Source: a bacterium
GTDB lineage: Bacteria > Zhuqueibacterota > Zhuqueibacteria > Oceanimicrobiales > Oceanimicrobiaceae
Length of the DNA stretch: 18,680 bases
Direction of reading: 5' to 3'
Assembly: GCA_046757025.1 (NCBI GenBank)
Contig: JBHHXN010000102.1
Span: 1 to 18,680, forward strand
A program made the translations under genes and the position numbers. Numbering within the stretch: the stretch's first letter is position 1; every line of letters begins with the position of its first letter. Under the pieces are notes generated by a model. It searched no databases. It had not been told where the DNA came from and was given only the letters and a program-made list of their open reading frames with translations. Shown in pieces: positions 1,099 through 18,678 of this stretch.

Positions 1099-1261
1099 GC
1101 TTTGGCCTCCTATTTTAATTGACACAAAGTAGCCAATCCTTTTTAAAATATCCACCCGATTCTTGCGTAAAGTTGGATACAATACCATGATACCGCGATT
1201 AATTTTTACCGGTGAAACATCAAAAGAATATTGAAAAAAGTTCGACAAAATGAAAAAAATG

Positions 1262-1290
1262 TTGACATTCCTAATACGATGTATTATATT
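1262..1290 (+). promoter_or_regulatory. sigma70-type promoter of the PadR operon
   Basis: TTGACA (1262-1267), 17-nt spacer, TATATT (1285-1290), about 65 nt upstream of the padR ATG. Confidence 0.8.
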
Positions 1291-1295
1291 GAGGT

Positions 1296-1322
1296 TGTTT
1301 ATATAGATTCTCTATATAAACA
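1296..1322. promoter_or_regulatory. Perfect inverted repeat, probable PadR autoregulatory operator
   Basis: TGTTTATATAGA-ttc-TCTATATAAACA (12-bp perfect arms, 3-nt spacer) at the predicted transcription start. Confidence 0.7.
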
Positions 1323-1354
1323 CTATCTACATAAATATATATATTTTAAATAGT

Positions 1355-1702
1355 ATGAAGTTAACGGCTATTGAAATACCCTATTTAACGAAGAATTGTA
1401 ATGAAGCGTTGATCCTGTCTATTCTCTTTAAGGGTAAAAAACATGGTTATCAATTAGCGCTTGAAATTGAGCAAGAGAGTGATGGGTATTTTAAATTTAA
1501 TCATGGTACTCTTTACCCGATATTACACAAGTTAGAAAAAGCGGGTTTGATTAAAGGCACCTGGAAACAGGAAGGACCTAAACGACAAAGAAAATATTAT
1601 GTGCTGACGGCCAGAGGAAGAAAATACGTTATAAACCAGCTCCATGAATGGCGTAGATTTTTTGATCATTTTTTTGATATTTTAGGAGAAATTGAGAAAT
1701 GA
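1355..1702 (+). CDS. PadR-family winged-helix transcriptional regulator (short, subfamily-2-like)
   Basis: LILSIL...HGYQL...GTLYPILHKLEKAGLI...RQRKYYVLTARGR is the PadR signature; 115 aa. Confidence 0.93.
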   Translation: MKLTAIEIPYLTKNCNEALILSILFKGKKHGYQLALEIEQESDGYFKFNHGTLYPILHKLEKAGLIKGTWKQEGPKRQRKYYVLTARGRKYVINQLHEWRRFFDHFFDILGEIEK

Positions 1703-2439
1703 ATCGTTTCGCCCCCTTTTTGAAAGAGGTTAATGAGAAGCTAAATCTGCCCCAACCTACCAAGTCTCGCATTCTTCTTGAGATGGCTGCCGATCTGGAA
1801 GATCTCTTCAATTATTTCCGTGAATCCGGGTTAGATGAAGCGCAAGCTCTGCAAAAAACCGAAGAGATGCTCCGCACGAATGACGAAACTTTGGCGGAAC
1901 TGGTTCAAATTCACGACACGGGATTCAGAAAATTTCTCAACAAATTGTCCGAACAAGCTCAAACACGCTGGGAACGAGTTTGTTTGGTGTTGTTATTTTT
2001 ATTCCTATTTTTCTTTGTGGGCAGGGAGATATTTAGTTTTCGATTTTTCTCCAATGCCAGCCACTTTATCTGGCCGATTTTAGGAATTTCTCTGGCAATG
2101 ACCGTTTTAGCCACTTCGAAAATTTACCGGCTTTTTATTAAGAAGGATCACCGAATTAGAAAGCTGCATTCTGGTTTATCCACTTTTTTGTTTTTGTGTG
2201 GCTCGAGTTTGATGATTGCAGTTGGCGGCTTTCTTGTAGAGCTTTATCAAACAGCGGGTAAAATCATGCGGGATAGTGAGCATGCTTTTCATTATATAAT
2301 TGAATGGTTATCAAAAGGAAGTGCGCTTATTATCGTCAGCGCTTTTATCACCATATTTGCAGCTATTCTGTGGTTTATTTTTCTGATCAGAATTACAAAA
2401 ATCGAGATCGCTGAAATGGCTTATCTGAGTAACGATTGA
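1699..2439 (+). CDS. Membrane protein with an N-terminal HAAS-like helical domain and a C-terminal MotA/TolQ/ExbB-like TM domain
   Basis: ATGA overlap with padR. The N-terminus FLKEVNEKLNLPQPTKSRILLEMAADLEDL...GLDEAQALQK resembles helical domains that partner PadR. About 4 hydrophobic segments; the C-terminal half aligns by eye with 2482..2871. Confidence 0.7.
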   Translation: MNRFAPFLKEVNEKLNLPQPTKSRILLEMAADLEDLFNYFRESGLDEAQALQKTEEMLRTNDETLAELVQIHDTGFRKFLNKLSEQAQTRWERVCLVLLFLFLFFFVGREIFSFRFFSNASHFIWPILGISLAMTVLATSKIYRLFIKKDHRIRKLHSGLSTFLFLCGSSLMIAVGGFLVELYQTAGKIMRDSEHAFHYIIEWLSKGSALIIVSAFITIFAAILWFIFLIRITKIEIAEMAYLSND

Positions 2440-2481
2440 GTTAATTGAATTAGTGGATAATTAAAAATAAAGGAGGATACT

Positions 2482-2871
2482 ATGTTTACCTGGTTTTATG
2501 ATGGTGGGGTGTTTATGTTGCCGTTATTGATATTATCCATAACCGTCCTCACCTTGACGTCAAAAAAAATTATTGAGCTTTATGGTAAAAAAGAACTTGA
2601 TTTCACGCGCCTGGAAGTGGGCCTGAATGCGATTATTTTCTGGGGAGGCTTAAGTGTAGTTATAGGTTTTTTAGGCTCTTTCCTGGGAATCTATATCGCA
2701 GCTGGGCACATTCCGGCCACAGCGGATGACATTTCAGCAAGCATTGTCTGGGGCGGCATCCGCGTGGCCTTAACCACGACCATTTTTGGTTTGATTATTT
2801 TTGCCTTTGCATCGATTGCCTGGTTTATTTTGCGCAGTCAGCTCAAGAAGTTGATGAGAAATACGGTGTGA
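2482..2871 (+). CDS. Small MotA/TolQ/ExbB proton-channel-like membrane protein
   Basis: RBS AAGGAGG (2470-2476). GGVFMLPLLILS ... IGFLGSFLGIY ... ISASIVWGGIRVALTTTIFGLII matches the ExbB/TolQ TM motifs (GLLGTV.G / GI..AL.TT..GL); 3 TMs with a very short cytoplasmic loop. Confidence 0.8.
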   Translation: MFTWFYDGGVFMLPLLILSITVLTLTSKKIIELYGKKELDFTRLEVGLNAIIFWGGLSVVIGFLGSFLGIYIAAGHIPATADDISASIVWGGIRVALTTTIFGLIIFAFASIAWFILRSQLKKLMRNTV

Positions 2872-2901
2872 ATAATTTGAGTTCTACCAATTAATTGGCG
2901 T

Positions 2902-2944
2902 TCCGTGCGGTTTGAACAATTCAAATCGCACGGATTACCTTTAT
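2902..2944 (+). terminator. Stem-loop terminator after the PadR operon, possibly bidirectional
   Basis: TCCGTGCGGTTTGAA-caa-TTCAAATCGCACGGA (15-bp stem with one G-U pair) followed by TTACCTTTT, between convergent genes. Confidence 0.7.
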
Positions 2945-3134
2945 TATCCATTTTTTGTTTTGCGATTTGGATTTTTGCAAAACCCCACCAAATGTGTTTC
3001 AGTTGTATCCAAAAACAACTTGATTTTTATACGATACTATCGTAGAAATTCAAAAGATTTTATACGATAGCAGCTGGTTAATCGAAAACTCGTATTTTCA
3101 TCCAGTAACTAAACGCACAGTTGAAGTGCCTGAA

Positions 3135-5228
3135 TTAAAACCCAGCCCCATACCTTTCCTGTAGCTTTTGAATACCCAACGGCTCTCCAATGAATGTCAG
3201 TCGGTCGTGCTCTTTGAGCACGGTACGGCCTCGGGGAATGATGATCTCTCCACCTCGATGAATGACCGCGATCAGAGCGCCTTCGGGAAGCTTGAGATCC
3301 CGAATGGCTTGCCCAATCATGCTGGCGGTTTTGTTTTTCTGAGATATTCGGAACAGAACGAAATGCTCATCGCGATGCAGAATCTCTTTTAAGTCCATAT
3401 CATGGCTGGCTTTCAACCAGTGTTTCATGAAGCGTTGGTCGTCCGCCTGACCGGCAATTTGCGCCAGTAACCGCAAATGCTGGCCCGGGTCGTTTTCCGG
3501 GCTCACGAGAAAGAAAAAAGCAAAAACCGGTTTATCAGAAGCGTGTTCCCCAAGAAATTCGTCGTCCACATCCACCATCACGCCTTTTTGCGCTCGCACG
3601 ATGACCATTTCCGGGAGTTGGATATCCGGCAGACGCAGATGGGGCAGGGCCACGCCATGGGAAACCGGTGTGGCGCCCACGCGCGTACCCTGCATGAAAC
3701 TCTCCACCAGCAAGTCGGTTGCAACGGGGAGCCGCTGGGACAATTTTTCGGCGGCTTTGTGCACCACTTCTTCAAAAGTGAACTCCGCCGCCAAATCGAT
3801 AACTCCAGCGCGCGCGATGACCATTTCAAACGGATCTTCTTCACGCAACCCTTTTTCCTGTAAAATGCCCCGCAGCTCGCGATCCAGCCCTTTGTAGCTG
3901 CGTTCGCCAAGCCGGGCAAACACATGATAAACCGCGCCTTCTCTTTGCACCTTATTACGAGCGTAATAATGGTACCAGGCAACTCCGGCCAAAATGAGAC
4001 CCGCGGTGAAAACAGAAGGCCATACGCCCATTTCCACGATCAACAGAAGCGGTGCGACAATGCCGGCAATATGCAGCCAGGGGTACAGGGGTGAGCGGTA
4101 ACCGGGATCGTACGACTCGAGCCGACTTTCTCGCATGATGATCACCGCCAGGCAGCTCAGGGCAAACAAAAGCAGTTGAAAGGCGCTGGCTAATTTGGCG
4201 ATTTTAGTCGGGTCGAACAGCAAAAGACAGGCGATGATGAGAACGATTGTAACGTAAATGGCAAATTTCGGTGAGCGGTGTTTGTTCAAAATGCGAAAAA
4301 ATCGCGGCGTCAATTGATCCCGGCTCATGGCCAGCGGATAGCGGGAGGCGCTCAGGATGGCTGAGTTGGCCACCGAAAAGAAGGCTAATACCGCTGCGAT
4401 AGTGATGAAAACCGTCCCTACTAAACCAGCAAACGACTTAGCCGAAGTGGCCACCGGCGTTAAATCGCGATAAAATTCTTGTGGGGGAATGGTGCCAACC
4501 ATGAGTATCGTGCCCAGGCTGTAGATGACGATGGCGGTCACCAGCGCCAACATCATGGCCAGCGGTAGATTTTTTTCTGGATTTTTGACTTCTTCAGAAA
4601 CGCTGGCGATGTTGGTCAGGCCCACGTAACTGATGTACACCAAGCCCGCGGTGCTGTAGATAGGCTGCCAGCCTTTGCTGAAATATTCTAAAAAATGTCT
4701 GGCTTTTAAATGAAAAAAGCCTTGCCCGCAGACGCCTGCCAGGATGAGAAAGAGACCGATCACCAAAAAGATTTGAAATTTGCTGGTTTTTTTTGCGCCG
4801 AATAAATTGAGCACGCCAAAAAGAATCGCAAATCCGATAGCCAACGGCACGATGGGCACTTCGGGCAGAAAGATGCCGATGTACGCGCCCATGCCGATGA
4901 GCGCAAAAGCGGTTTTGAGGATCAGCGCCAGCCAGGTGCCCAGGCCTCCCACGGTTCCGACCATGGGACCCAGGCTGCGATCTAAAAAGTAGTAAATGCC
5001 GCCGGCGCGCGGCATGGCGGTGGAAAGCTCGGCCATGCTCAAAACGGCGGGAATGAGGTGCAGCGCCGCAATCAAATAGCTGATGGTCACCGCAGGGCCG
5101 GCTTGAGCTGCCGCCAGTCCGGGCAGAAGAAAAAAGCCGGAGCTGAGCGTGGCGCCCGTGGCCAGAGCGTAAATATTAAAGAGGGTCAGCTCTTTTTTCA
5201 GGCGCTTGGATTTGGGGATGACAGACAT
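3135..5228 (-). CDS. APC-family amino acid permease fused to PTS EIIA (type 2) and TrkA-C/RCK_C domains
   Basis: N-terminal ~12-TM region (GATLSSGFFLLPG, AELSTAMPRAGGIY, SEEVKNPEKNLP). EIIA motif GATPVSHGVALPHLR plus HLRLLAQIA. RCK_C motif IGQAIRDLKLPEGALIAVIHRGGEIIIPRGRTVLKEHDRLTFIG. Confidence 0.88.
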   Translation of the reverse strand: MSVIPKSKRLKKELTLFNIYALATGATLSSGFFLLPGLAAAQAGPAVTISYLIAALHLIPAVLSMAELSTAMPRAGGIYYFLDRSLGPMVGTVGGLGTWLALILKTAFALIGMGAYIGIFLPEVPIVPLAIGFAILFGVLNLFGAKKTSKFQIFLVIGLFLILAGVCGQGFFHLKARHFLEYFSKGWQPIYSTAGLVYISYVGLTNIASVSEEVKNPEKNLPLAMMLALVTAIVIYSLGTILMVGTIPPQEFYRDLTPVATSAKSFAGLVGTVFITIAAVLAFFSVANSAILSASRYPLAMSRDQLTPRFFRILNKHRSPKFAIYVTIVLIIACLLLFDPTKIAKLASAFQLLLFALSCLAVIIMRESRLESYDPGYRSPLYPWLHIAGIVAPLLLIVEMGVWPSVFTAGLILAGVAWYHYYARNKVQREGAVYHVFARLGERSYKGLDRELRGILQEKGLREEDPFEMVIARAGVIDLAAEFTFEEVVHKAAEKLSQRLPVATDLLVESFMQGTRVGATPVSHGVALPHLRLPDIQLPEMVIVRAQKGVMVDVDDEFLGEHASDKPVFAFFFLVSPENDPGQHLRLLAQIAGQADDQRFMKHWLKASHDMDLKEILHRDEHFVLFRISQKNKTASMIGQAIRDLKLPEGALIAVIHRGGEIIIPRGRTVLKEHDRLTFIGEPLGIQKLQERYGAGF

Positions 5229-8118: not shown

Positions 8119-8871
8119 TTATTTTAATATTTCTTTCAAACGGTTATGACCGCTTTTGCTGATGGGAAGGGAATGACCGTTGGTTAAAATCAATTTGTAG
8201 GATTCTTTACCGTACAATTCGATTTGTTTGATCATAGAGATCTTTACGATGTATGAACGGTGAATTCGGATAAATTGCCCGGGGTCTAAATGTTGCTCAA
8301 AATATTTCATGGTTTTTTGTTTGAGGAACTCGCCTTCGCGGGTGTGCAGCATCACGTAGTCGTCCTGGGCTTCCAACCAGTACAAATGCGCCACCGGCAG
8401 AATGGTGATCTTCGAGCCGGTCTTGACCACGATGCGTTCCAGCAGCTCGGTTTGCTGTTCATGGTGGCTGACGATTTTTTGGATGACCCGGTCGTGCTCT
8501 GATTTATTATCAGTCAACTTCAAAGCGCGATGGACCGCTTCGTGAAATCTATCGCGGGTATAAGGTTTGAGCAAATAGTCCGCCGCGCTCACCTCAAAAG
8601 CTTTCAAAGCGTATTGATCGTACGCCGTGGAAAAAATGATCACCGGAGCGTCCTCCAGCAGCTCGAGCATTTCAAAGCCGGTGATTTTGGGCATCTGAAT
8701 GTCCAAAATGATCAGGTCTGGTTTGTGGTCGTGGATGGCTTTGAGCCCTTCGAAGCCGTTGCTGCATTCGGCCCGCACTTCGATGTTTGGGAAATCTGTC
8801 AAATAATTTTTGATGATATCGCGTGCGGGTTGTTCATCTTCGATGATCACCGCTTTGATGCGTACGGCCAT
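8119..8871 (-). CDS. LytTR-family two-component response regulator
   Basis: Receiver domain (IIEDE, LDIQMPKITGFE, FSTAYDQYALKAFE, DYLLKP) plus LytTR domain (LEAQDDYV, FIRIHRSYIV). Confidence 0.95.
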   Translation of the reverse strand: MAVRIKAVIIEDEQPARDIIKNYLTDFPNIEVRAECSNGFEGLKAIHDHKPDLIILDIQMPKITGFEMLELLEDAPVIIFSTAYDQYALKAFEVSAADYLLKPYTRDRFHEAVHRALKLTDNKSEHDRVIQKIVSHHEQQTELLERIVVKTGSKITILPVAHLYWLEAQDDYVMLHTREGEFLKQKTMKYFEQHLDPGQFIRIHRSYIVKISMIKQIELYGKESYKLILTNGHSLPISKSGHNRLKEILK

Positions 8872-8873
8872 AT

Positions 8874-9929
8874 TTACCTCGTATGGATTGGGATAAAAAT
8901 CGTCACTTTGAATTGCCTGCTGCCCTTTTGAATGTGCAGCAAGGATTTTTGTTTGTACAGCAGCTCCAGGCGATTTTCGATGTTTTTCAAACCGATGCCT
9001 TCTCCTTTTTTGGATAAGCCTTCCGGGTCGAAATCGTTTTCAAGGGAAAAAGTCATAAAATTGCCGTTCACAGAACAGGATAATTTGATCTTGATTTTGT
9101 CGATGCTTTCATAAACACCGTGTTTGATGGCATTCTCAAACAACGGTTGCAGCAGCATGTTGGGCACCAGAACATTCAGACATTCCTTTTGGATTTGTTC
9201 TTCAAAATCGAATTTATCTCCAAATCGTATTTTTTCGATATCCAGGTACAAACGGGCGCTGTCCAGCTCTTCTTTGAAGGTACTCTTTTGCTGCTCATTT
9301 TTTGAAAGGGTGTATCTTAAAAAGTCACCCAATTTAGCGGTCATTTCGCCTGCTTTTTTGGGGTCGGAGATGATCAATGAGTTGATGGAATTCAGACTGT
9401 TGAAAATGAAATGCGGATTGATTTGAAATTTCAACGATTTCAGCTCGGCTTCTTTTACTAGCGCCCGCAACTCCGCTTCTTTCAGTCGATGTTCCTGCAG
9501 GTTGGTGGCATATATGTGAACGTAGTAAAAGGTAATGGTGACAAAATAAAATAAAATGCCGATGGGAATGCGCCAGGTGAGCGACGATTGCAGAAAATTT
9601 CTGTAAATGGCGTCAACAGAAATGATTTGCACCAGCATGAAATAGCTGACGCCGATCCAGATGAACGTCACCACGATGGAAGCGGTTGAGTGGTGGAGAA
9701 GGATTTTCTGGAGATTGACTTTTTCCAGCGCAATGTACCGACAGGTGTACCAGAAACTGAGACCCAGCGCCGCAAACAGCAGATTGAAGGTTGCGCTGTC
9801 GAGGAGGCTGCGGTGCCAGGCCAATCCCTGATCCAGGTAAAGCACCAGAAACTGAATGACCGCGACGATGACCCATAAAGAAATATACAAATACAAGTAT
9901 TTGAAATTTCTCAGCAGCGGATTCGTCAT
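8874..9929 (-). CDS. LytS/YehU-type membrane sensor histidine kinase
   Basis: 4 N-terminal TMs; ELKSLKFQINPHFIFNSLNSI (His_kinase), LDIEKIRFG, LQPLFENAIKHG, GEGIGLKNIENRL. Confidence 0.95.
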   Translation of the reverse strand: MTNPLLRNFKYLYLYISLWVIVAVIQFLVLYLDQGLAWHRSLLDSATFNLLFAALGLSFWYTCRYIALEKVNLQKILLHHSTASIVVTFIWIGVSYFMLVQIISVDAIYRNFLQSSLTWRIPIGILFYFVTITFYYVHIYATNLQEHRLKEAELRALVKEAELKSLKFQINPHFIFNSLNSINSLIISDPKKAGEMTAKLGDFLRYTLSKNEQQKSTFKEELDSARLYLDIEKIRFGDKFDFEEQIQKECLNVLVPNMLLQPLFENAIKHGVYESIDKIKIKLSCSVNGNFMTFSLENDFDPEGLSKKGEGIGLKNIENRLELLYKQKSLLHIQKGSRQFKVTIFIPIHTR

Positions 9930-9965
9930 GGTTAACTAAATCCTCTTTTCACCAACAAAATAAGA

Positions 9966-10736
9966 TCAGGCATTCTTGATTTCCAGCCCGCCAAACATGA
10001 CAAATCCTTTTAGAATCAGGGTCTGGTCGTTTGGTTTCAAGCCGGTGGTGACCACGGCTCGGGAATCTTCAAAACCGCCAAAAATTGGCAGGCCTTTGAT
10101 GATAACATTCCAATCCTGTGGGACTTTTATTTCTGTGCCGCCAAACATGGTGAAAACATCTATGACATTTTCCCCATCGGATAATTTTACATTTCTTAAA
10201 TCGATTTCGGTGCCGCCAAACAGGGTCGTGATGGTGCCGCCGACGAAATTGTCCGAAGTCACGATTTTTTCGTTACCGCTAAAAATGGCCACCGCATCGA
10301 TGCGGTTTTCAAAGGTATTGGGCGTTTTTTTACTTGGCTCGGAACCGTATTTGTAGTACTTGTAAATGATGGAGCAGCCGATGCAGATCAAAATCAACGG
10401 CCAAAATTGCCACACGTCTCCCCAATCCAGATAATCCAGATTGAGCAGAAGAAGCAGCGTGCCCACAGCGATGAACATCATCCCGGAGTTGCGATCGTGA
10501 TGATAGGCGTTGCAGCAATAATCGCACGTGCTTTTGTTATGGTCCACTTCGTCTTTTGCGTGCTGAATTGGAGTTCGCAACCGCAACATTCCAACCGCGA
10601 TCAGGATGAGAGGCCACAGATGCCAGACGTCGCTCACATCGATGATGTCGAAGTTGTCCAGGAGAAACAGAAATCCTAACACAATAAGCCCGATTGCGAG
10701 CAGGTAATTTTGACCTTTTTTATGATGGCTGGTCAT
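9966..10736 (-). CDS. LiaF-like membrane protein (two DUF5668-like TM hairpins and a DUF2154-like C-terminal domain)
   Basis: Repeated motif LIxxGxLxLLxN...DVWxxWPLILI (2x). C-terminal AIFSG...TLFGGTEIDLR...TMFGGTEIKVPQDWNV...PIFGG...MFGGLEIKN. RBS AAGGAGA. Confidence 0.85.
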   Translation of the reverse strand: MTSHHKKGQNYLLAIGLIVLGFLFLLDNFDIIDVSDVWHLWPLILIAVGMLRLRTPIQHAKDEVDHNKSTCDYCCNAYHHDRNSGMMFIAVGTLLLLLNLDYLDWGDVWQFWPLILICIGCSIIYKYYKYGSEPSKKTPNTFENRIDAVAIFSGNEKIVTSDNFVGGTITTLFGGTEIDLRNVKLSDGENVIDVFTMFGGTEIKVPQDWNVIIKGLPIFGGFEDSRAVVTTGLKPNDQTLILKGFVMFGGLEIKNA

Positions 10737-14079: not shown

Positions 14080-17000
14080 TTAGGGATAGAGCTGAGAACT
14101 ACCTGGAGTCGGAATAGGTACGGAACCCAAAATGCCTGTCGGAATACGCAGAACCATTGGCGAATTGGCTCGCCATTCAAATGCGCCCATATCGATCATA
14201 CCGTTGACCACAGAGCGTGGCAGTCTTTCGAGATCAACGTGCGCGCCCATACCGGCGTCGGCCTGGTCGATGGCAGGCGAATTGGATTGCAAGCGCCAGT
14301 TCAGACTGGCTGGATCCACGAACTGGGGATCGAGATCGAGGTTACCGCCAATTGCCTGGAGATGACCGTTCGTTCCTTTCAGCCCGCTGAATCCAAAACC
14401 GTTGGCGATTTTGTTCCAGTTGAGACCGATGGCGCCGTTTTTCGCAATCGCCAGAATGGGACCGGGAGTCGTGGTTTCGACGACCAGCTCCGGTGCGTAA
14501 ACACCTTCTTTGGAGCTGTACTTCGCGGCATCCGAGGACGCATTCTTGATGGCAAAGCTGTAAGTACCGTTGCCAAAGATCGCGCCGGTGACATCGAATT
14601 CCACCATGTCGCCGGTCGCCATGGCGCCAACCGAGCTGAGAGGCGCACCCGCGATGGGCGGCGCGTTGTTCCAGTTCAGGCTGCCTTCGTCCCAGCCGTT
14701 TTCTACGGTATAAATACCGCCGCCGTCGTTGCTGCCGTTGATGGCTTTCAGACGAACCTTTGCGCTCACCACTGCTCCACCCAATCCGGAAACGTTGAAT
14801 TTCAGAAAAGCGTAGATCTTCTTGGAAGTGATGCGCACGCGCAGTTCGTCGCTGGCTCCGTAGACTTTGGTCGCTTTGTTCGAACGGACAAACGAATCGT
14901 CCGTGGGATTGAACGTATAGGTGCCAGGCACGCCGCCGCCACCCGGATTGACCGTTACAACCACATCGTCGGTGCCGGTGGCGCCTTCGTTGTCTGTCAC
15001 CGTCAAGGTGATGGTGTGGACTCCCAATGCCAGATTAACTGCCGGATTGAGACCGGTAGCGATGCTGCTGCCGCCTTCACTCCAGTCGTAGCTGACAATG
15101 GTGCCGTCGTTGTCAAAAGAGCCGCTGCCGTCCAGGGTGACGCCTTCAGATCCGTTATTGTCTGCGTCCGTCACATCCTGATTGGGTCCGGCATCGGCTA
15201 CTGGTGATTGATTCCCACCTCCAGCTCCGAAATCCACAACCAGCTCGGGTGCGTAAACACCTTCTTTGGAGCTGTACTTCGCGGCATCCGAGGTGGAATT
15301 CTTAATACCAAAGCTATAAGTTCCATCGCCTGCGATGGCTGAGGTCACGTCGAACTCGACCATGTCGCCCAGAGCCACCGGGCCGTTGGAGCTTAATGCG
15401 CTGCCGCCTAAGGCCGGGGCATTGTTCCAATTGACGCTGCCCTCGTCCCAGCCGTTGGCGACCGAGTAAATCTCGCCGCCCTCGCTACTGGCGTTGATGA
15501 CTTTCAGGCGAAGTTTGGCATTCGTAACCGCCCCGCCTACCCCCGCAACATTGAACTTCAAGTAGGTGTAGTATTTGGCGGAAGAAGACCTGCGTACGCG
15601 CAGCTCATCGGAGCCGCCATAATTCTTGGTCGCTTTGTTTGAACGGACAAACGAGTCATCGATGGGATTGAAAGTCAGCGAACCCGCTCCGCCGCCACCG
15701 GGATTGACCGTGACCACCACATCGTCTGTGCCGGTCGCGCCTTGATCATCGGTGACCGTCAGAGTTATGGTATGTACGCCCACAGACAGGCTTACGGTGG
15801 GATTGACGCCGCTGGCGATGGAGCTGCCGCTTTCGCTCCAGTCATAGTTGACGATGGAGCCGTCGGTGTCATAAGAGCCGCTGCCGTTGAGCGTCACATC
15901 TTCATCGCCGCTGCTGTCTCCATCAGACAAAATCTGATTCGGTCCGGCATCCGCGACCGGAGCCTGGTTGCCGCCAGCCATTTCGAATTCTACTAACAGC
16001 TTCGGGGCATACGTGCCTTCTTTCGAGCTGTAGATGGCCGCATCCGAAGAGTTGCTGCTGATGCAGAAACTAAAAGTTCCGTTGCCAGAAATCGCCGAGG
16101 TGACATCAAATTCCACGATCTCGCCGAGGCCTACGGCCCCAACAGAACTCAGGGAACTACCAGTTGTGCCAGGAGCGTTGTTCCAGTTCAAGCTGGCTTC
16201 ATCCCAGCCGTTCCCTGCCGGGTAAATGCTGCCGCCCTGATTGCTGGCGTTGATGACTTTAAGCTGTATCTTTGCGCTGGTGACGTTGCCAAGTAATCCA
16301 TTGACGTTGAACTTCAAGTACGTATGGTACTTAGCTGAATTGGACTTGCGCACGCGCATTTCATACGTATCGCCATAGTTTTTATTGGCCCGATTTGAGC
16401 GCACAAAGGCATCGTCTGTGGGGTTAAAGGAGAGCGGACCGTTTGGAATCACCGTCACGTTCACCAGGTCGGCATGCGATGCGCCCCGTTCGTCATGCAC
16501 CGTCAACGTGAGAGTATGTGCACCCTGAGGCAAATCAATGGTTGGATTTGCTTCATAAGCGAGCGGTGCGCCATTTTCACTCCACAGGTAGCTTACGATG
16601 GTGCCGTCGGTGTCTGAAGAGCCGCTGCCATCGAGGGTCACGGGCTCAGAGCCGCTGTTGTCCAGATCTTTCAGCGCCTGGTTCAAACCGGCATCGGCAG
16701 TGGGCGGCTGGTTGTTGTAATCGTAACCTCCCTGAATGATGTTATTGTGCACATAACTAAAGCTGTTGGTGTTGTTATCGTTTTCCCATTCTTCCTGCAA
16801 GTGGGGGTTGTCCACGTGCAGTTGGTCCGGGGTCCAGACGAAGTTTTTGGACCAGGTGTAATCCAGGTCTTCTTCCTCGCCGCCTTCCATGACCTGATCG
16901 TAATGCACCCGCCAGTTGCCCCAGATGATGTTGTTGAAGATCTTGGGATCACTGTAGCCGGGCGCCATATAGGGACCATCCTGGCCGCTATACTCGTGGC

Positions 17001-18678
17001 CGTGGCGTTCGCTGTCGATGCCGCCGCCGGCTGGATTGAAACTGCCAGAGACCATGTTGCCGACAATGGTATTATTGAATATGTTGGCGTCTCGGACATC
17101 ATCCAGAGCGAGTGCTGCGCCGCGCGCATGGTTCTCGCCGTGATCGTCGGCGATGTTTTCGGCAAAAAGATTGTTGTAGATATTTACATGGGAGAGGGTG
17201 TCGCCCACGTCTTCAAAACTGATGGCGCCGCCGTCGTCGGGCGTCCAGTTGCGCAGGAACACATTGCCGTAGATATCGATGGGGCCGCAGTCCTCAAAGA
17301 ACATGCCGGCGCCGTGATCTTCGGATTTGTTTTCCAGCAAGACATTGCCGTAGAGCTTTAGATGGTCTTTGATTTCATACATGCAGATACCGCCGCCATA
17401 ATCGAAGGACCAGTTGTGAAAGATCAGGTTGTTGTAAATCTCGTAGGTGCCCGGTGGCGGTCCGGGAAGGTAGTCATCCCAGATGTGTTCCGGCTGCCCG
17501 TGTTCTTCGGTGTACTCCGGTTCATCGTTGACGCTGATGCCGCCGCCGTAGCCGCCGTAGTTACCGTTTTCGGCGATAAGATTGGACCAGATATTCACAT
17601 TGTGGTTGGAGAGATGCAACCAGATACCGCCGCCGTAGTAACCACCGTTGCGGTAGATTCGGCAATTGTTGATATCGAGGTCGTGGTTGCCGTAGTCGGC
17701 AAAAATGCCGCAGCCAATATCGTCGCCGTTGACATTCCCGCCGGTGATGGTAAAACTACTGATGTGGATATCGTATTTTGCACCATGGATACCGCCTCTG
17801 CCGATGAAGATCACCGGGCCCGAACCGTTGTTTGGACCTTGCGAAGTCAAATTAAACGATCGCGGAAGCCCATTAATCGTGGTTTCATGGGGGCCGGCGC
17901 CGATGAGATAAACATGGTTCTTATCCAGTTTTATGTTTTCATAATAGGTGCCTGCGGCTACATAGATGTATTTTGGCGAGACCTCTGGCAGGTTGTCGAT
18001 GGCCTCCTGGATGGAATTCCAGGGGTGCGCCTTGCTGCCATCCTCAGGGCCGCTATTGCTGACGTCCACGTAAAAGGAGCGATTGGCCATGGTGGCCGCC
18101 CGCGCAGGCGGGTAGTCGATTTCGACGGCCAGGGCATTGGAGTGGCCGGTGGTGGTGGCCACAACGATTGGGCCGCTGATGGCGTCTTCGGGAATGACGA
18201 CGTCGATGTAGTTGTCGGTCCACTCCAACACTTCCAGCGGCTGGCCAGCCAGGCTGGCTGTTTGATACCCTTGTGCGTCGCCAAAATCAAAACCCTGAAT
18301 GCGATAGGTGTCGCCCGGCGCCAGGATAATGGGCGGGCTCGCTGCGAGCTTGGTCCCTTTACTCTTTCCTCCTGCTCGGCCGAAAATTTGTACGGGTGCG
18401 GCGCCCGGGGCAATAATCGTTGGCTCAGTCATGGTTATGAGCGGGTCGTCGTTACACATCAGGCCCAGCCCCATAAAGGTAGCGGGCATGAGCGACCAAT
18501 CCGCTTCGAACTTGAATTTTCCCTGGCCGAAGGTGTAAGGCAAATCCATCGGCAGGTAGTTTCCGCAATATCCTGGCAGCGCCGGATCATTGCCGCGATA
18601 GATATGCACGCCCGGGGCAAAACGTCGTTCCGCCTCCGGCTTTTGGTCCGGATCTTCACCCGTAGGACATTGGCTTAC
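14080..18678 (-). CDS. Very large extracellular protein, 5'-truncated by the window edge: IPT/TIG-like domain, right-handed parallel beta-helix, 3x(PKD + DNRLRE/CBM96-like), choice-of-anchor-Q-like C-terminus
   Basis: The frame has no stop from the GTG at 18609 to the window end (VSQCPTGEDPDQKPEAERRFAPG), so the true start lies outside. IPT-like (IQGFDFG...WTDNYIDVVIP...GPIVV). DGSKAHPWNSIQEAID...YVAAGTYYENI beta-helix cap and N..YGGGI repeats. P(T/V)ADAG..VTLDGSGS.D.DGTIVSY.W PKD x3; FNP.DD.FVRS...YLKFNV...WDE...WNNAP...YSSKEG.YAP.L x3; DPQFVD...LQSNSPAID...IDMGAFE. Confidence 0.88.
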   Translation of the reverse strand, partial: VSQCPTGEDPDQKPEAERRFAPGVHIYRGNDPALPGYCGNYLPMDLPYTFGQGKFKFEADWSLMPATFMGLGLMCNDDPLITMTEPTIIAPGAAPVQIFGRAGGKSKGTKLAASPPIILAPGDTYRIQGFDFGDAQGYQTASLAGQPLEVLEWTDNYIDVVIPEDAISGPIVVATTTGHSNALAVEIDYPPARAATMANRSFYVDVSNSGPEDGSKAHPWNSIQEAIDNLPEVSPKYIYVAAGTYYENIKLDKNHVYLIGAGPHETTINGLPRSFNLTSQGPNNGSGPVIFIGRGGIHGAKYDIHISSFTITGGNVNGDDIGCGIFADYGNHDLDINNCRIYRNGGYYGGGIWLHLSNHNVNIWSNLIAENGNYGGYGGGISVNDEPEYTEEHGQPEHIWDDYLPGPPPGTYEIYNNLIFHNWSFDYGGGICMYEIKDHLKLYGNVLLENKSEDHGAGMFFEDCGPIDIYGNVFLRNWTPDDGGAISFEDVGDTLSHVNIYNNLFAENIADDHGENHARGAALALDDVRDANIFNNTIVGNMVSGSFNPAGGGIDSERHGHEYSGQDGPYMAPGYSDPKIFNNIIWGNWRVHYDQVMEGGEEEDLDYTWSKNFVWTPDQLHVDNPHLQEEWENDNNTNSFSYVHNNIIQGGYDYNNQPPTADAGLNQALKDLDNSGSEPVTLDGSGSSDTDGTIVSYLWSENGAPLAYEANPTIDLPQGAHTLTLTVHDERGASHADLVNVTVIPNGPLSFNPTDDAFVRSNRANKNYGDTYEMRVRKSNSAKYHTYLKFNVNGLLGNVTSAKIQLKVINASNQGGSIYPAGNGWDEASLNWNNAPGTTGSSLSSVGAVGLGEIVEFDVTSAISGNGTFSFCISSNSSDAAIYSSKEGTYAPKLLVEFEMAGGNQAPVADAGPNQILSDGDSSGDEDVTLNGSGSYDTDGSIVNYDWSESGSSIASGVNPTVSLSVGVHTITLTVTDDQGATGTDDVVVTVNPGGGGAGSLTFNPIDDSFVRSNKATKNYGGSDELRVRRSSSAKYYTYLKFNVAGVGGAVTNAKLRLKVINASSEGGEIYSVANGWDEGSVNWNNAPALGGSALSSNGPVALGDMVEFDVTSAIAGDGTYSFGIKNSTSDAAKYSSKEGVYAPELVVDFGAGGGNQSPVADAGPNQDVTDADNNGSEGVTLDGSGSFDNDGTIVSYDWSEGGSSIATGLNPAVNLALGVHTITLTVTDNEGATGTDDVVVTVNPGGGGVPGTYTFNPTDDSFVRSNKATKVYGASDELRVRITSKKIYAFLKFNVSGLGGAVVSAKVRLKAINGSNDGGGIYTVENGWDEGSLNWNNAPPIAGAPLSSVGAMATGDMVEFDVTGAIFGNGTYSFAIKNASSDAAKYSSKEGVYAPELVVETTTPGPILAIAKNGAIGLNWNKIANGFGFSGLKGTNGHLQAIGGNLDLDPQFVDPASLNWRLQSNSPAIDQADAGMGAHVDLERLPRSVVNGMIDMGAFEWRANSPMVLRIPTGILGSVPIPTPGSSQLYP
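14473..16710 (-). repeat. Intragenic tandem triplication of a ~250-aa PKD+DNRLRE module
   Basis: Units start near 16710, 15966 and 15210 (periods 744 and 756 bp), with strongly similar protein sequences. Confidence 0.9.

Follow-up and report, generated by a model that had tools for sequence, protein, structure and literature searches.

A conserved padR operon with two ExbB/TolQ-derived membrane proteins, a possible envelope-signaling switch

The locus described here raises the question of what ExbB/TolQ-type membrane proteins do when they are encoded beside a PadR-family regulator and away from exbD or motB. It lies in an 18,680-nt stretch of DNA, referred to as the window (contig JBHHXN010000102.1 of GenBank assembly GCA_046757025.1, from a bacterium of the Zhuqueibacterota). 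Three genes, namely padR, a gene for a 246-amino-acid (aa) protein (the fused gene), and a gene for a 129-aa protein (the small gene), form a conserved operon, which we call the trio. We lean, with limited confidence, toward reading this operon and its gate-less mini-ExbB pair as an envelope-signaling switch of the HAAS-PadR type and not as a proton motor.

A three-gene operon

The operon and its parts, in window coordinates, are as follows.

1262 to 1290, + strand: sigma-70-type promoter-like site (TTGACA at 1262 to 1267, 17 nt, TATATT at 1285 to 1290; 11 of 12 consensus matches)
1283 to 1335, no strand assigned: operator array of three overlapping ATAT[ACT]GA-N3-TC[AGT]ATAT sites with a 15-bp period, at 1283, 1298, and 1313
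1355 to 1702, + strand: padR, 115 aa, a short PadR-family winged-helix regulator (PF03551, E 1.4e-24)
1699 to 2439, + strand: fused gene, 246 aa (N-terminal domain, TM0, and degenerate mini-ExbB unit)
1699 to 1926, + strand: HAAS-like (perm_prefix_1-like) cytoplasmic helical domain, residues 1 to 76 of the 246-aa protein
1966 to 2031, + strand: TM0, an extra predicted transmembrane helix, residues 90 to 111, starting with a conserved W91-E92-R93
2038 to 2439, + strand: degenerate mini-ExbB unit, residues 114 to 246, in which bulky residues have largely replaced both the glycine skeleton and the gate threonines
2482 to 2871, + strand: small gene (plain mini-ExbB), 129 aa, PF01618 E 3e-9, three predicted transmembrane helices
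2902 to 2934, + strand: terminator-like hairpin (15 pairs, 3-nt loop, weak T tail)

A sequence-only reading of the window had described a complete unit running from promoter and operator through the three genes to a terminator, and we located every open reading frame (ORF) and element as claimed. The padR stop codon and the fused-gene start codon overlap in the sequence ATGA at 1699 to 1702. The same 4-nt overlap was found in 27 of the 33 readable loci among L001 to L036 of our survey. Neither exbD nor motB is present within the window. G+C content is 37% over bases 1100 to 3100, compared with 47% genome-wide. The cassette is patchily distributed and may have been transferred horizontally.

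The trio is conserved among distant genomes

We collected 174 loci, of which 134 were distinct after 33 duplicates and 7 loci without an anchor had been dropped. The N-terminal domain (N-domain) of the fused protein was encoded in 110 of these. padR accompanied it in 106 loci and the small gene in 105, and all three were present together in 102; many of the missing members are attributable to contig ends. With a home-made ExbD profile, we found exbD in 0 of the 134 distinct loci. The neighborhood survey that the sequence-only reading had called for thus found a conserved trio, and the claim that the operon has no ExbD/MotB partner held both in the window and across the surveyed loci. Likewise, ExbD, MotB/OmpA, and TonB_C (Pfam) were absent from 103 hand-picked neighboring ORFs.

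A profile of the fused protein identified 45 loci in GTDB genomes titled KSB1, Gemmatimonadota, Acidobacteriota, Krumholzibacteriia, and Planctomycetaceae, and 41 of the 45 had the full trio. With the small protein as bait, Gemmatimonadota yielded 27 loci from 26 of 251 sampled genomes; padR was present in all 27, and a fused gene was detected in 25. Acidobacteriota yielded 8 loci from 8 of 301 sampled genomes, all with the fused gene. Among metagenome loci, a fused-type gene lay upstream of the small gene in 42 of 44. The fused gene or a piece of it was found in 22 of 167 genomes of the host's own phylum; the 20 other genomes of its own family gave nothing beyond a weak ExbB-type match. At E 1e-30 or better, the fused family numbers 268 representatives. 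Atlas clusters of the small protein were most frequent in Bacteroidota; the neighborhood counts given here are for loci outside the Bacteroidota, and Bacteroidota loci may have other layouts. Searches of plasmids gave a single match, a canonical ExbB with two exbD genes, and further plasmid queries gave no match.

The small protein as a shortened ExbB/TolQ-type subunit

The small protein matched PF01618 with 37.2 bits (curated cutoff, 22.9), and 33 of 37 members of its family matched at E 0.01 or better. Searched against PDB, the small-protein profile matched TolQ (E 2.8e-7), ExbB (1.5e-5), and MotA (0.012). Alignment with two full-length ExbB-type proteins (P0062 and P0064) ran end to end with a single gap of about 58 to 61 residues. 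The deleted stretch is the cytoplasmic domain between the first and second transmembrane helices of ExbB/TolQ. An AlphaFold2 (AF2) model of the small protein has three long helices with a predicted local distance difference test score (pLDDT) of 90.8. Hydropathy and lysine-plus-arginine charge bias gave an N-out/C-in topology. In Foldseek, the best match was TolQ (TM-score by query, 0.74; E 0.01), and all the rows listed were MotA/TolQ/ExbB family members. TolQ, ExbB, and ZorA ranked near the top of the structure searches, and unrelated helical bundles, such as CorA, tied with them; no Foldseek or VIA structure match reached E 0.001. Because the structure matches stay above E 0.001 and unrelated bundles tie, we base the ExbB/TolQ ancestry on the sequence profiles.

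We aligned 146 small proteins (up to 160 aa), 194 fused proteins (230 to 280 aa), and 11 canonical proteins. Five glycine positions of the small family are invariant in 143 to 146 of the 146 proteins. The small family also has invariant aromatic residues, F53-W54 and W114 (146 of 146), with no counterpart in canonical subunits. According to the sequence-only reading, a GI..ALTTT..GL motif was kept in the small protein and lost in the fused copy. This is true of the protein in the window, but it is not a hallmark of the family, since ALTTT is present in only 6 of 146 small proteins. A looser pattern, G...[AS]LxT...G[L], is present in 111 of 146 small proteins and 2 of 194 fused proteins. Longer versions of the small protein, of 186 to 194 aa (P0066, P0067, P0072, and L012:3145-3729), have the first helix-loop-helix stretch duplicated in tandem.

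Loss of the parts of a proton motor

In TolQ, the proton gate is reported to consist of T145 and T178 together with D23 of TolR, and T145A mutants are severely defective (PMC12965293). At the T145 position, all 11 canonical proteins have Thr, whereas the small proteins have Gln (114), His (17), Thr (10), or Ser (5), and the fused proteins have mostly Tyr (70), Phe (53), or Ala (15). At the T178 position, Thr is again found in all 11 canonical proteins; the commonest residues are Thr (70), Pro (47), and Ile (13) in the small proteins and Met (66) and Leu (49) in the fused proteins. The two gate threonines occur together in only 5 of the 146 small proteins and 1 of the 194 fused proteins, but in all 11 canonical proteins. 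The small protein in the window has S66 and T100 at these positions. Pro occupies the P138 and P187 positions in 7 of 11 canonical proteins and is not among the commonest residues there in small proteins. Glu is found at the E173 position in 85 of 146 small proteins. The sequence-only reading spoke of a stator-derived hetero-oligomer; the small protein, however, is no intact stator subunit, since it lacks about 58 to 60 cytoplasmic residues and its family rarely has Thr at the T145 position. We concluded that the trio proteins, although PF01618 by descent, are not members of the 5:2 motors.

The host genome itself has 8 full-length PF01618 loci and 13 ExbD matches. One exbD (G000:C133:1082-1585) is unpaired, with no exbB upstream, and is a close relative of an exbD on contig C3. 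Therefore, cross-talk in trans with the mini-ExbB subunits is possible. In five single-contig trio genomes, 26 of 28 ExbD matches adjoin a full-length exbB, and 4 of the 5 genomes have no unpaired exbD. Canonical ExbBD was present in 5 of 5 other trio genomes checked.

Three other accounts of the operon were discarded: chance ORFs are ruled out by the strong conservation, a pseudogene or split exbB is ruled out by each part being a conserved family of its own with conserved start codons, and an ordinary exbB with an overlooked exbD was rejected.

The fused protein combines a helical N-domain with a degenerate paralogue

Residues 114 to 227 of the fused protein align with residues 2 to 116 of the small protein (BLASTP, 36 of 116 identities [31%]; E 9e-11; 3 gap positions), and the profiles of the two families match with a profile-profile probability of 99.2 to 99.3%. 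The paralogy of the C-terminal half of the 246-aa protein with the whole 129-aa protein, as first proposed, is therefore well founded. The profile of the fused family matched TolQ at E 0.0019; the 246-aa protein of the window by itself had no match to PF01618. These profile matches to TolQ/ExbB bear out the earlier description of both membrane proteins as ExbB/MotA-like, although no Foldseek match reached E 0.001. On this evidence, both proteins are derived from ExbB/TolQ and belong to PF01618 by descent. The fused family matches the small family more strongly (E 2e-20) than it matches canonical proteins (E 5e-10), as would be expected if a duplication took place within this branch. Several glycines of the small family are Glu, Trp, Ser, or Cys in the fused family. 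Neither TM0 nor the other segments gave an alignment with a profile of the ExbD helices of the genome.

No part of the fused protein is better conserved than the N-domain, in which E28 (194 of 194), D32 (193 of 194), L68, and H72 are nearly invariant; the domain is helical in an AF2 model of the 246-aa protein. The N-domains of 51 of 53 members matched NF038403 (perm_prefix_1) with E values of 0.3 or better, the best being 2e-7, and 1 of 11 N-domain sequences scanned singly passed its cutoff. Pfam HAAS matched 4 of 33 N-domain fragments at E 0.07 to 0.22, all below the cutoff. The structure neighbors of the N-domain in the Atlas include HAAS clusters, with TM-scores under 0.5. The grouping of perm_prefix_1 with HAAS is our own inference.

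An operator array on the shared promoter

The promoter scan found 5 promoter-like sites in the real sequence and 7.2 in shuffled sequences. Hence, the weight of the promoter call lies in its conservation; judged by eye, TTGAC is present at a comparable distance upstream of many relatives. The perfect operator noted earlier, a palindrome at 1296 to 1322 with 12-bp arms and a 3-nt spacer, is indeed perfect and is now seen to be the middle one of three overlapping sites. A search of the 5.96-Mb genome that allowed 3 mismatches found no second copy of its 25-nt core. The first site of the array, at 1283, overlies the -10 box.

With up to 2 mismatches, the 200 bases preceding padR contained the operator pattern in 72 of 83 distinct regions; 50 dinucleotide shuffles gave a mean of 1.7 and a maximum of 4. 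The commonest spacing of sites in the 83 upstream regions was 15 bp. In a matrix scan of the whole genome, the three top sites were those at 1283, 1298, and 1313 of the window; no second strong operator was found elsewhere in the genome (best outside score, 16.3, versus 29.6). Because the three best sites of the genome are all here, the first of them over the -10 box, PadR is likely an autorepressor with a regulon of one operon. All three genes share a single promoter, on which the operator lies, and so PadR would control its own gene and both membrane subunits. The proposal that PadR controls the plain subunit would thus be right in part; the array at the shared promoter implicates padR and the fused gene too.

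Variant loci

At six loci (L076 to L080 and L173), the small gene stands alone, divergent from genes for a LytS-type kinase and a LytTR regulator. The regulator is therefore exchangeable. Since the small subunit exists there without a fused partner, a mixed oligomer is not obligatory. No convincing common LytTR-type direct repeat was found upstream of these six small genes. The window itself has, 5 kb from the operon, one run of genes for a LiaF-like membrane protein, a LytS-type kinase (PF06580), and a LytTR regulator (8119 to 10736, - strand), whose resemblance to the regulators of standalone small genes elsewhere is probably a coincidence.

Some operons have up to four related subunits. L132, L140, and L149 have copies with TM0 and without the N-domain, in each case behind a full fused gene and in addition to it. 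A beta-lactamase-family serine hydrolase gene adjoins the trio in 6 distinct loci, and in two cases the hydrolase is fused behind the small protein with a signal-peptide-like stretch between the units (L031:4781-6565 and, frameshifted, L033:4792-6564). The host genome has 2 matches to the serine-hydrolase query in 5.96 Mb. The hydrolase gene is not a conserved fourth gene; these neighbors are a weak hint of envelope-active compounds.

Three further arrangements were seen. The product of L096:1495-3003 has a small ExbB-like unit followed by a signal-peptide-like stretch and an exported domain of unassigned family. L081:4784-5817 has a fused-type C-terminal unit and a small gene, with padR and the N-domain not detected, and is possibly a remnant. 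In several loci of one lineage (L002:2845-3900, L082:3848-4903, and L088:3537-4721), the next gene downstream, with the same orientation, is a DUF4837 gene.

A proposed HAAS-PadR-type switch

HAAS-PadR dyads were defined by Ravi et al. (bioRxiv 10.1101/2020.09.24.301986; PMC11237479), who proposed HAAS as the relay of a membrane signal to PadR and noted that such dyads take the place of kinase-receiver pairs; a Lipocone preprint makes the same relay proposal. The trio resembles such dyads, for example Listeria lltR-lmo0600-lmo0601 (PMC6624303), in having a short PadR directly upstream of a multi-transmembrane protein with a putative N-terminal three-helix domain and in its autoregulated layout, which is interchangeable with a two-component system. 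The standalone padR is coupled to the N-domain gene in 106 of 110 loci, as in the dyads. Hauf et al. (PMC6624303) report that LltR and LstR of Listeria autorepress their own operons about 150-fold and that no inducer is known for LltR. The trio differs from the dyads in that its membrane module is an ExbB/TolQ derivative, its N-domain has no GxP, and a plain paralogue of the sensor follows. The trio likely works like a HAAS-PadR dyad, although this one defining motif is missing.

We propose that PadR dimers would bind the operator array and repress all three genes. The 246-aa protein would be the sensor. A signal at the envelope, likely a compound that acts on the membrane or wall, would be picked up by its four-helix membrane part; its HAAS-like domain in the cytoplasm would then likely capture PadR, so that the operon is derepressed. 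The direction, capture, is deduced from the position of the operator; Ravi et al. (PMC11237479) propose release instead. Once induced, the 129-aa subunit would be an output or accessory subunit; its invariant glycines would let it assemble into ExbB-type rings, by itself or together with the fused paralogue. In other lineages, a LytS/LytTR two-component pair would drive the same small gene.

Several observations weigh against this switch. GxP, which Ravi et al. (PMC11237479) place at the PadR-binding groove, where it kinks helix 3, was found in 0 of 194 fused proteins. The Pfam HAAS cutoff was reached by 0 of 33 N-domain fragments, and the N-domain of the window matched NF038403 at E 0.058 only. 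The earlier description of the N-domain as HAAS-like thus holds in a perm_prefix_1-like sense, with GxP missing. In the text of PMC11237479, the HAAS-PadR contact itself is proposed from genomic context rather than measured. The operator pattern was derived from the same 83 regions in which it was counted, and the sampled genomes are kin, so that the operator counts are not independent. The ExbD profile recovered only 4 of 6 canonical control loci. Polar residues are conserved at the T145 position (Gln/His) and the E173 position (Glu) and in the fused protein (Glu92), and these may allow conduction of ions or solutes. Flanking genes are mostly unrelated between loci.

Alternative explanations

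The alternative that survives best, though we consider it unlikely, is direct sensing of a small ligand by PadR, as in the case of LmrR, with the membrane proteins as effectors that form a plugless ExbB-type ring and with a structural role for the N-domain. The ring would act as a gated pore, an efflux aid, or an immunity-type protein. LmrR and LftR are ligand-controlled PadRs over pumps (PMC6624303), ExbB is reported to oligomerize by itself, without ExbD (PMC7014051), and the small family has both an invariant glycine skeleton and conserved lumen-facing Gln/His. The small gene under LytS/LytTR control without a fused partner and the absence of GxP from the N-domain also favor this explanation. 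It sits poorly with an N-domain that is the best-conserved part of the fused protein and is accompanied by padR in 106 of 110 loci, the two genes mostly overlapping by 4 nt, and with the HAAS-less copies of L132, L140, and L149 being only extras to a full fused gene.

Rather improbable, in our view, is a small subunit that serves as a decoy or brake for the ExbBD/TolQR motors of the cell, joining their rings or titrating ExbD/TolR and so stopping TonB-dependent uptake when the sensor fires. Targets are at hand, in the host genome as in the 5 other trio genomes checked. The packing glycines are kept and the gate and cytoplasmic domain are lost, as would be expected of a dominant-negative subunit. 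However, the invariant aromatics that canonical subunits lack (F53-W54 and W114) suggest distinct interfaces, and we found no genomic link to tonB, receptors, or tol-pal among the neighbors.

We regard as slightly less probable still a 5:2 ion-coupled machine with a built-in plug, in which TM0 of the fused protein, with Glu92, would take the place of the Asp helix of ExbD. The HAAS-like domain would then shift in response to ion flux or membrane potential and so signal the energy state to PadR. The transmembrane helix of ExbD is oriented N-in. Charge bias likewise gives an N-in orientation for TM0, as for ExbD/MotB helices, and Glu92 is kept in 179 of 194 fused proteins. The extra paralogues with TM0 and without the HAAS-like domain, and the lack of an unpaired exbD to give a plug in trans in 4 of 5 single-contig trio genomes, also fit this explanation. 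Against it are the lack of profile similarity between TM0 and the ExbD helices of the genome, the loss of the gate threonines and of the P138/P187 positions, the location of Glu92 at the predicted membrane edge, and the LytS/LytTR-linked small genes, which have no TM0 partner. In its fullest and equally improbable form, this idea makes a membrane-energy sensor out of a 5:2 motor, with a ring of three plain and two fused subunits in which the fused Glu helix replaces ExbD. If this were true, the HAAS-like domain would capture or free PadR and couple proton-motive force directly to transcription. A modeled complex of three small and two fused subunits (residues 76 to 246) had interaction prediction scores from aligned errors (ipSAE) of 0.05 and 0.03, compared with a mark of 0.32; no controls were folded, and the scores are uninformative.

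Comparison with known systems

The trio proteins share the three-helix membrane unit and the glycine skeleton of ExbB/ExbD, TolQ/TolR, and MotA/MotB. Unlike these 5:2 motors, they lack the cytoplasmic domain (about 58 to 60 residues) and have mostly lost the T145/T178 pair and both prolines; no exbD, tolR, motB, or force transducer lies nearby; control is by PadR or LytTR; and there is a second, degenerate, domain-fused paralogue. Like ZorA of the anti-phage system Zorya, the trio would use a compact ExbB-type membrane unit for signaling. The structure of a type II ZorA matched the small protein (Z, 11.1; root mean square deviation, 2.5; 99 residues) in a tie with unrelated helical bundles, and the ZorA2 model gave 18.6 bits (cutoff, 700). 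Unlike Zorya, the trio lacks ZorB, the long cytoplasmic tail, and nuclease effectors, none of which was found among the neighbors scanned against Pfam, and its output would be a transcription factor. A further likeness is to padR_acidobact (TIGR03433)/perm_prefix_1 systems: PadR scored near the cutoff for TIGR03433 (92 bits; cutoff, 101.8), and the N-domain matches NF038403. In those systems, perm_prefix_1 heads MacB/FtsX-type permeases (Ravi et al., PMC11237479), whereas here the prefix domain heads a mini-ExbB.

The literature searched, which was mostly outside subscription papers, held no published description of the trio layout or the mini-ExbB family, in line with the earlier statement that no characterized system with this layout is known. 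A term search of PMC12204202 found no mention of PadR, HAAS, or orphan subunits. ExbB, MotA, and TolQ are absent from the main text and one supplement of Ravi et al. The idea that HAAS holds PadR is already published as a proposal. Because the relay was proposed by Ravi et al., only the membrane part is new here.

The trio points to a widespread and apparently undescribed branch of MotA/TolQ/ExbB, without partner gene or proton gate, that would be used in gene regulation and would widen the known uses of this scaffold. Routine annotation of such genes as "biopolymer transport protein ExbB/TolQ" is misleading. With its small set of three short genes, its defined operator array, and a two-component swap that occurs naturally, the operon offers a compact test bed for the HAAS-PadR relay.

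Other features of the window

Divergent from padR lies a gene for an Ada-like AraC/O6-methylguanine methyltransferase (238 to 1248, - strand), a neighbor that is not conserved. A gene for a fusion of an APC-type amino acid permease with phosphotransferase system (PTS) EIIA-like and TrkA-C parts (3135 to 5228, - strand) converges on the operon hairpin. Downstream of the hairpin, an exact 12-nt direct repeat (3025 to 3036 and 3058 to 3069, 33 nt apart) has an inverted repeat between its copies. At 14080 to 18609 (- strand), a protein of at least 1,509 aa is encoded, with a weak pectinesterase-like match and three PKD and three CBM96 repeats; its gene may extend beyond the end of the contig.

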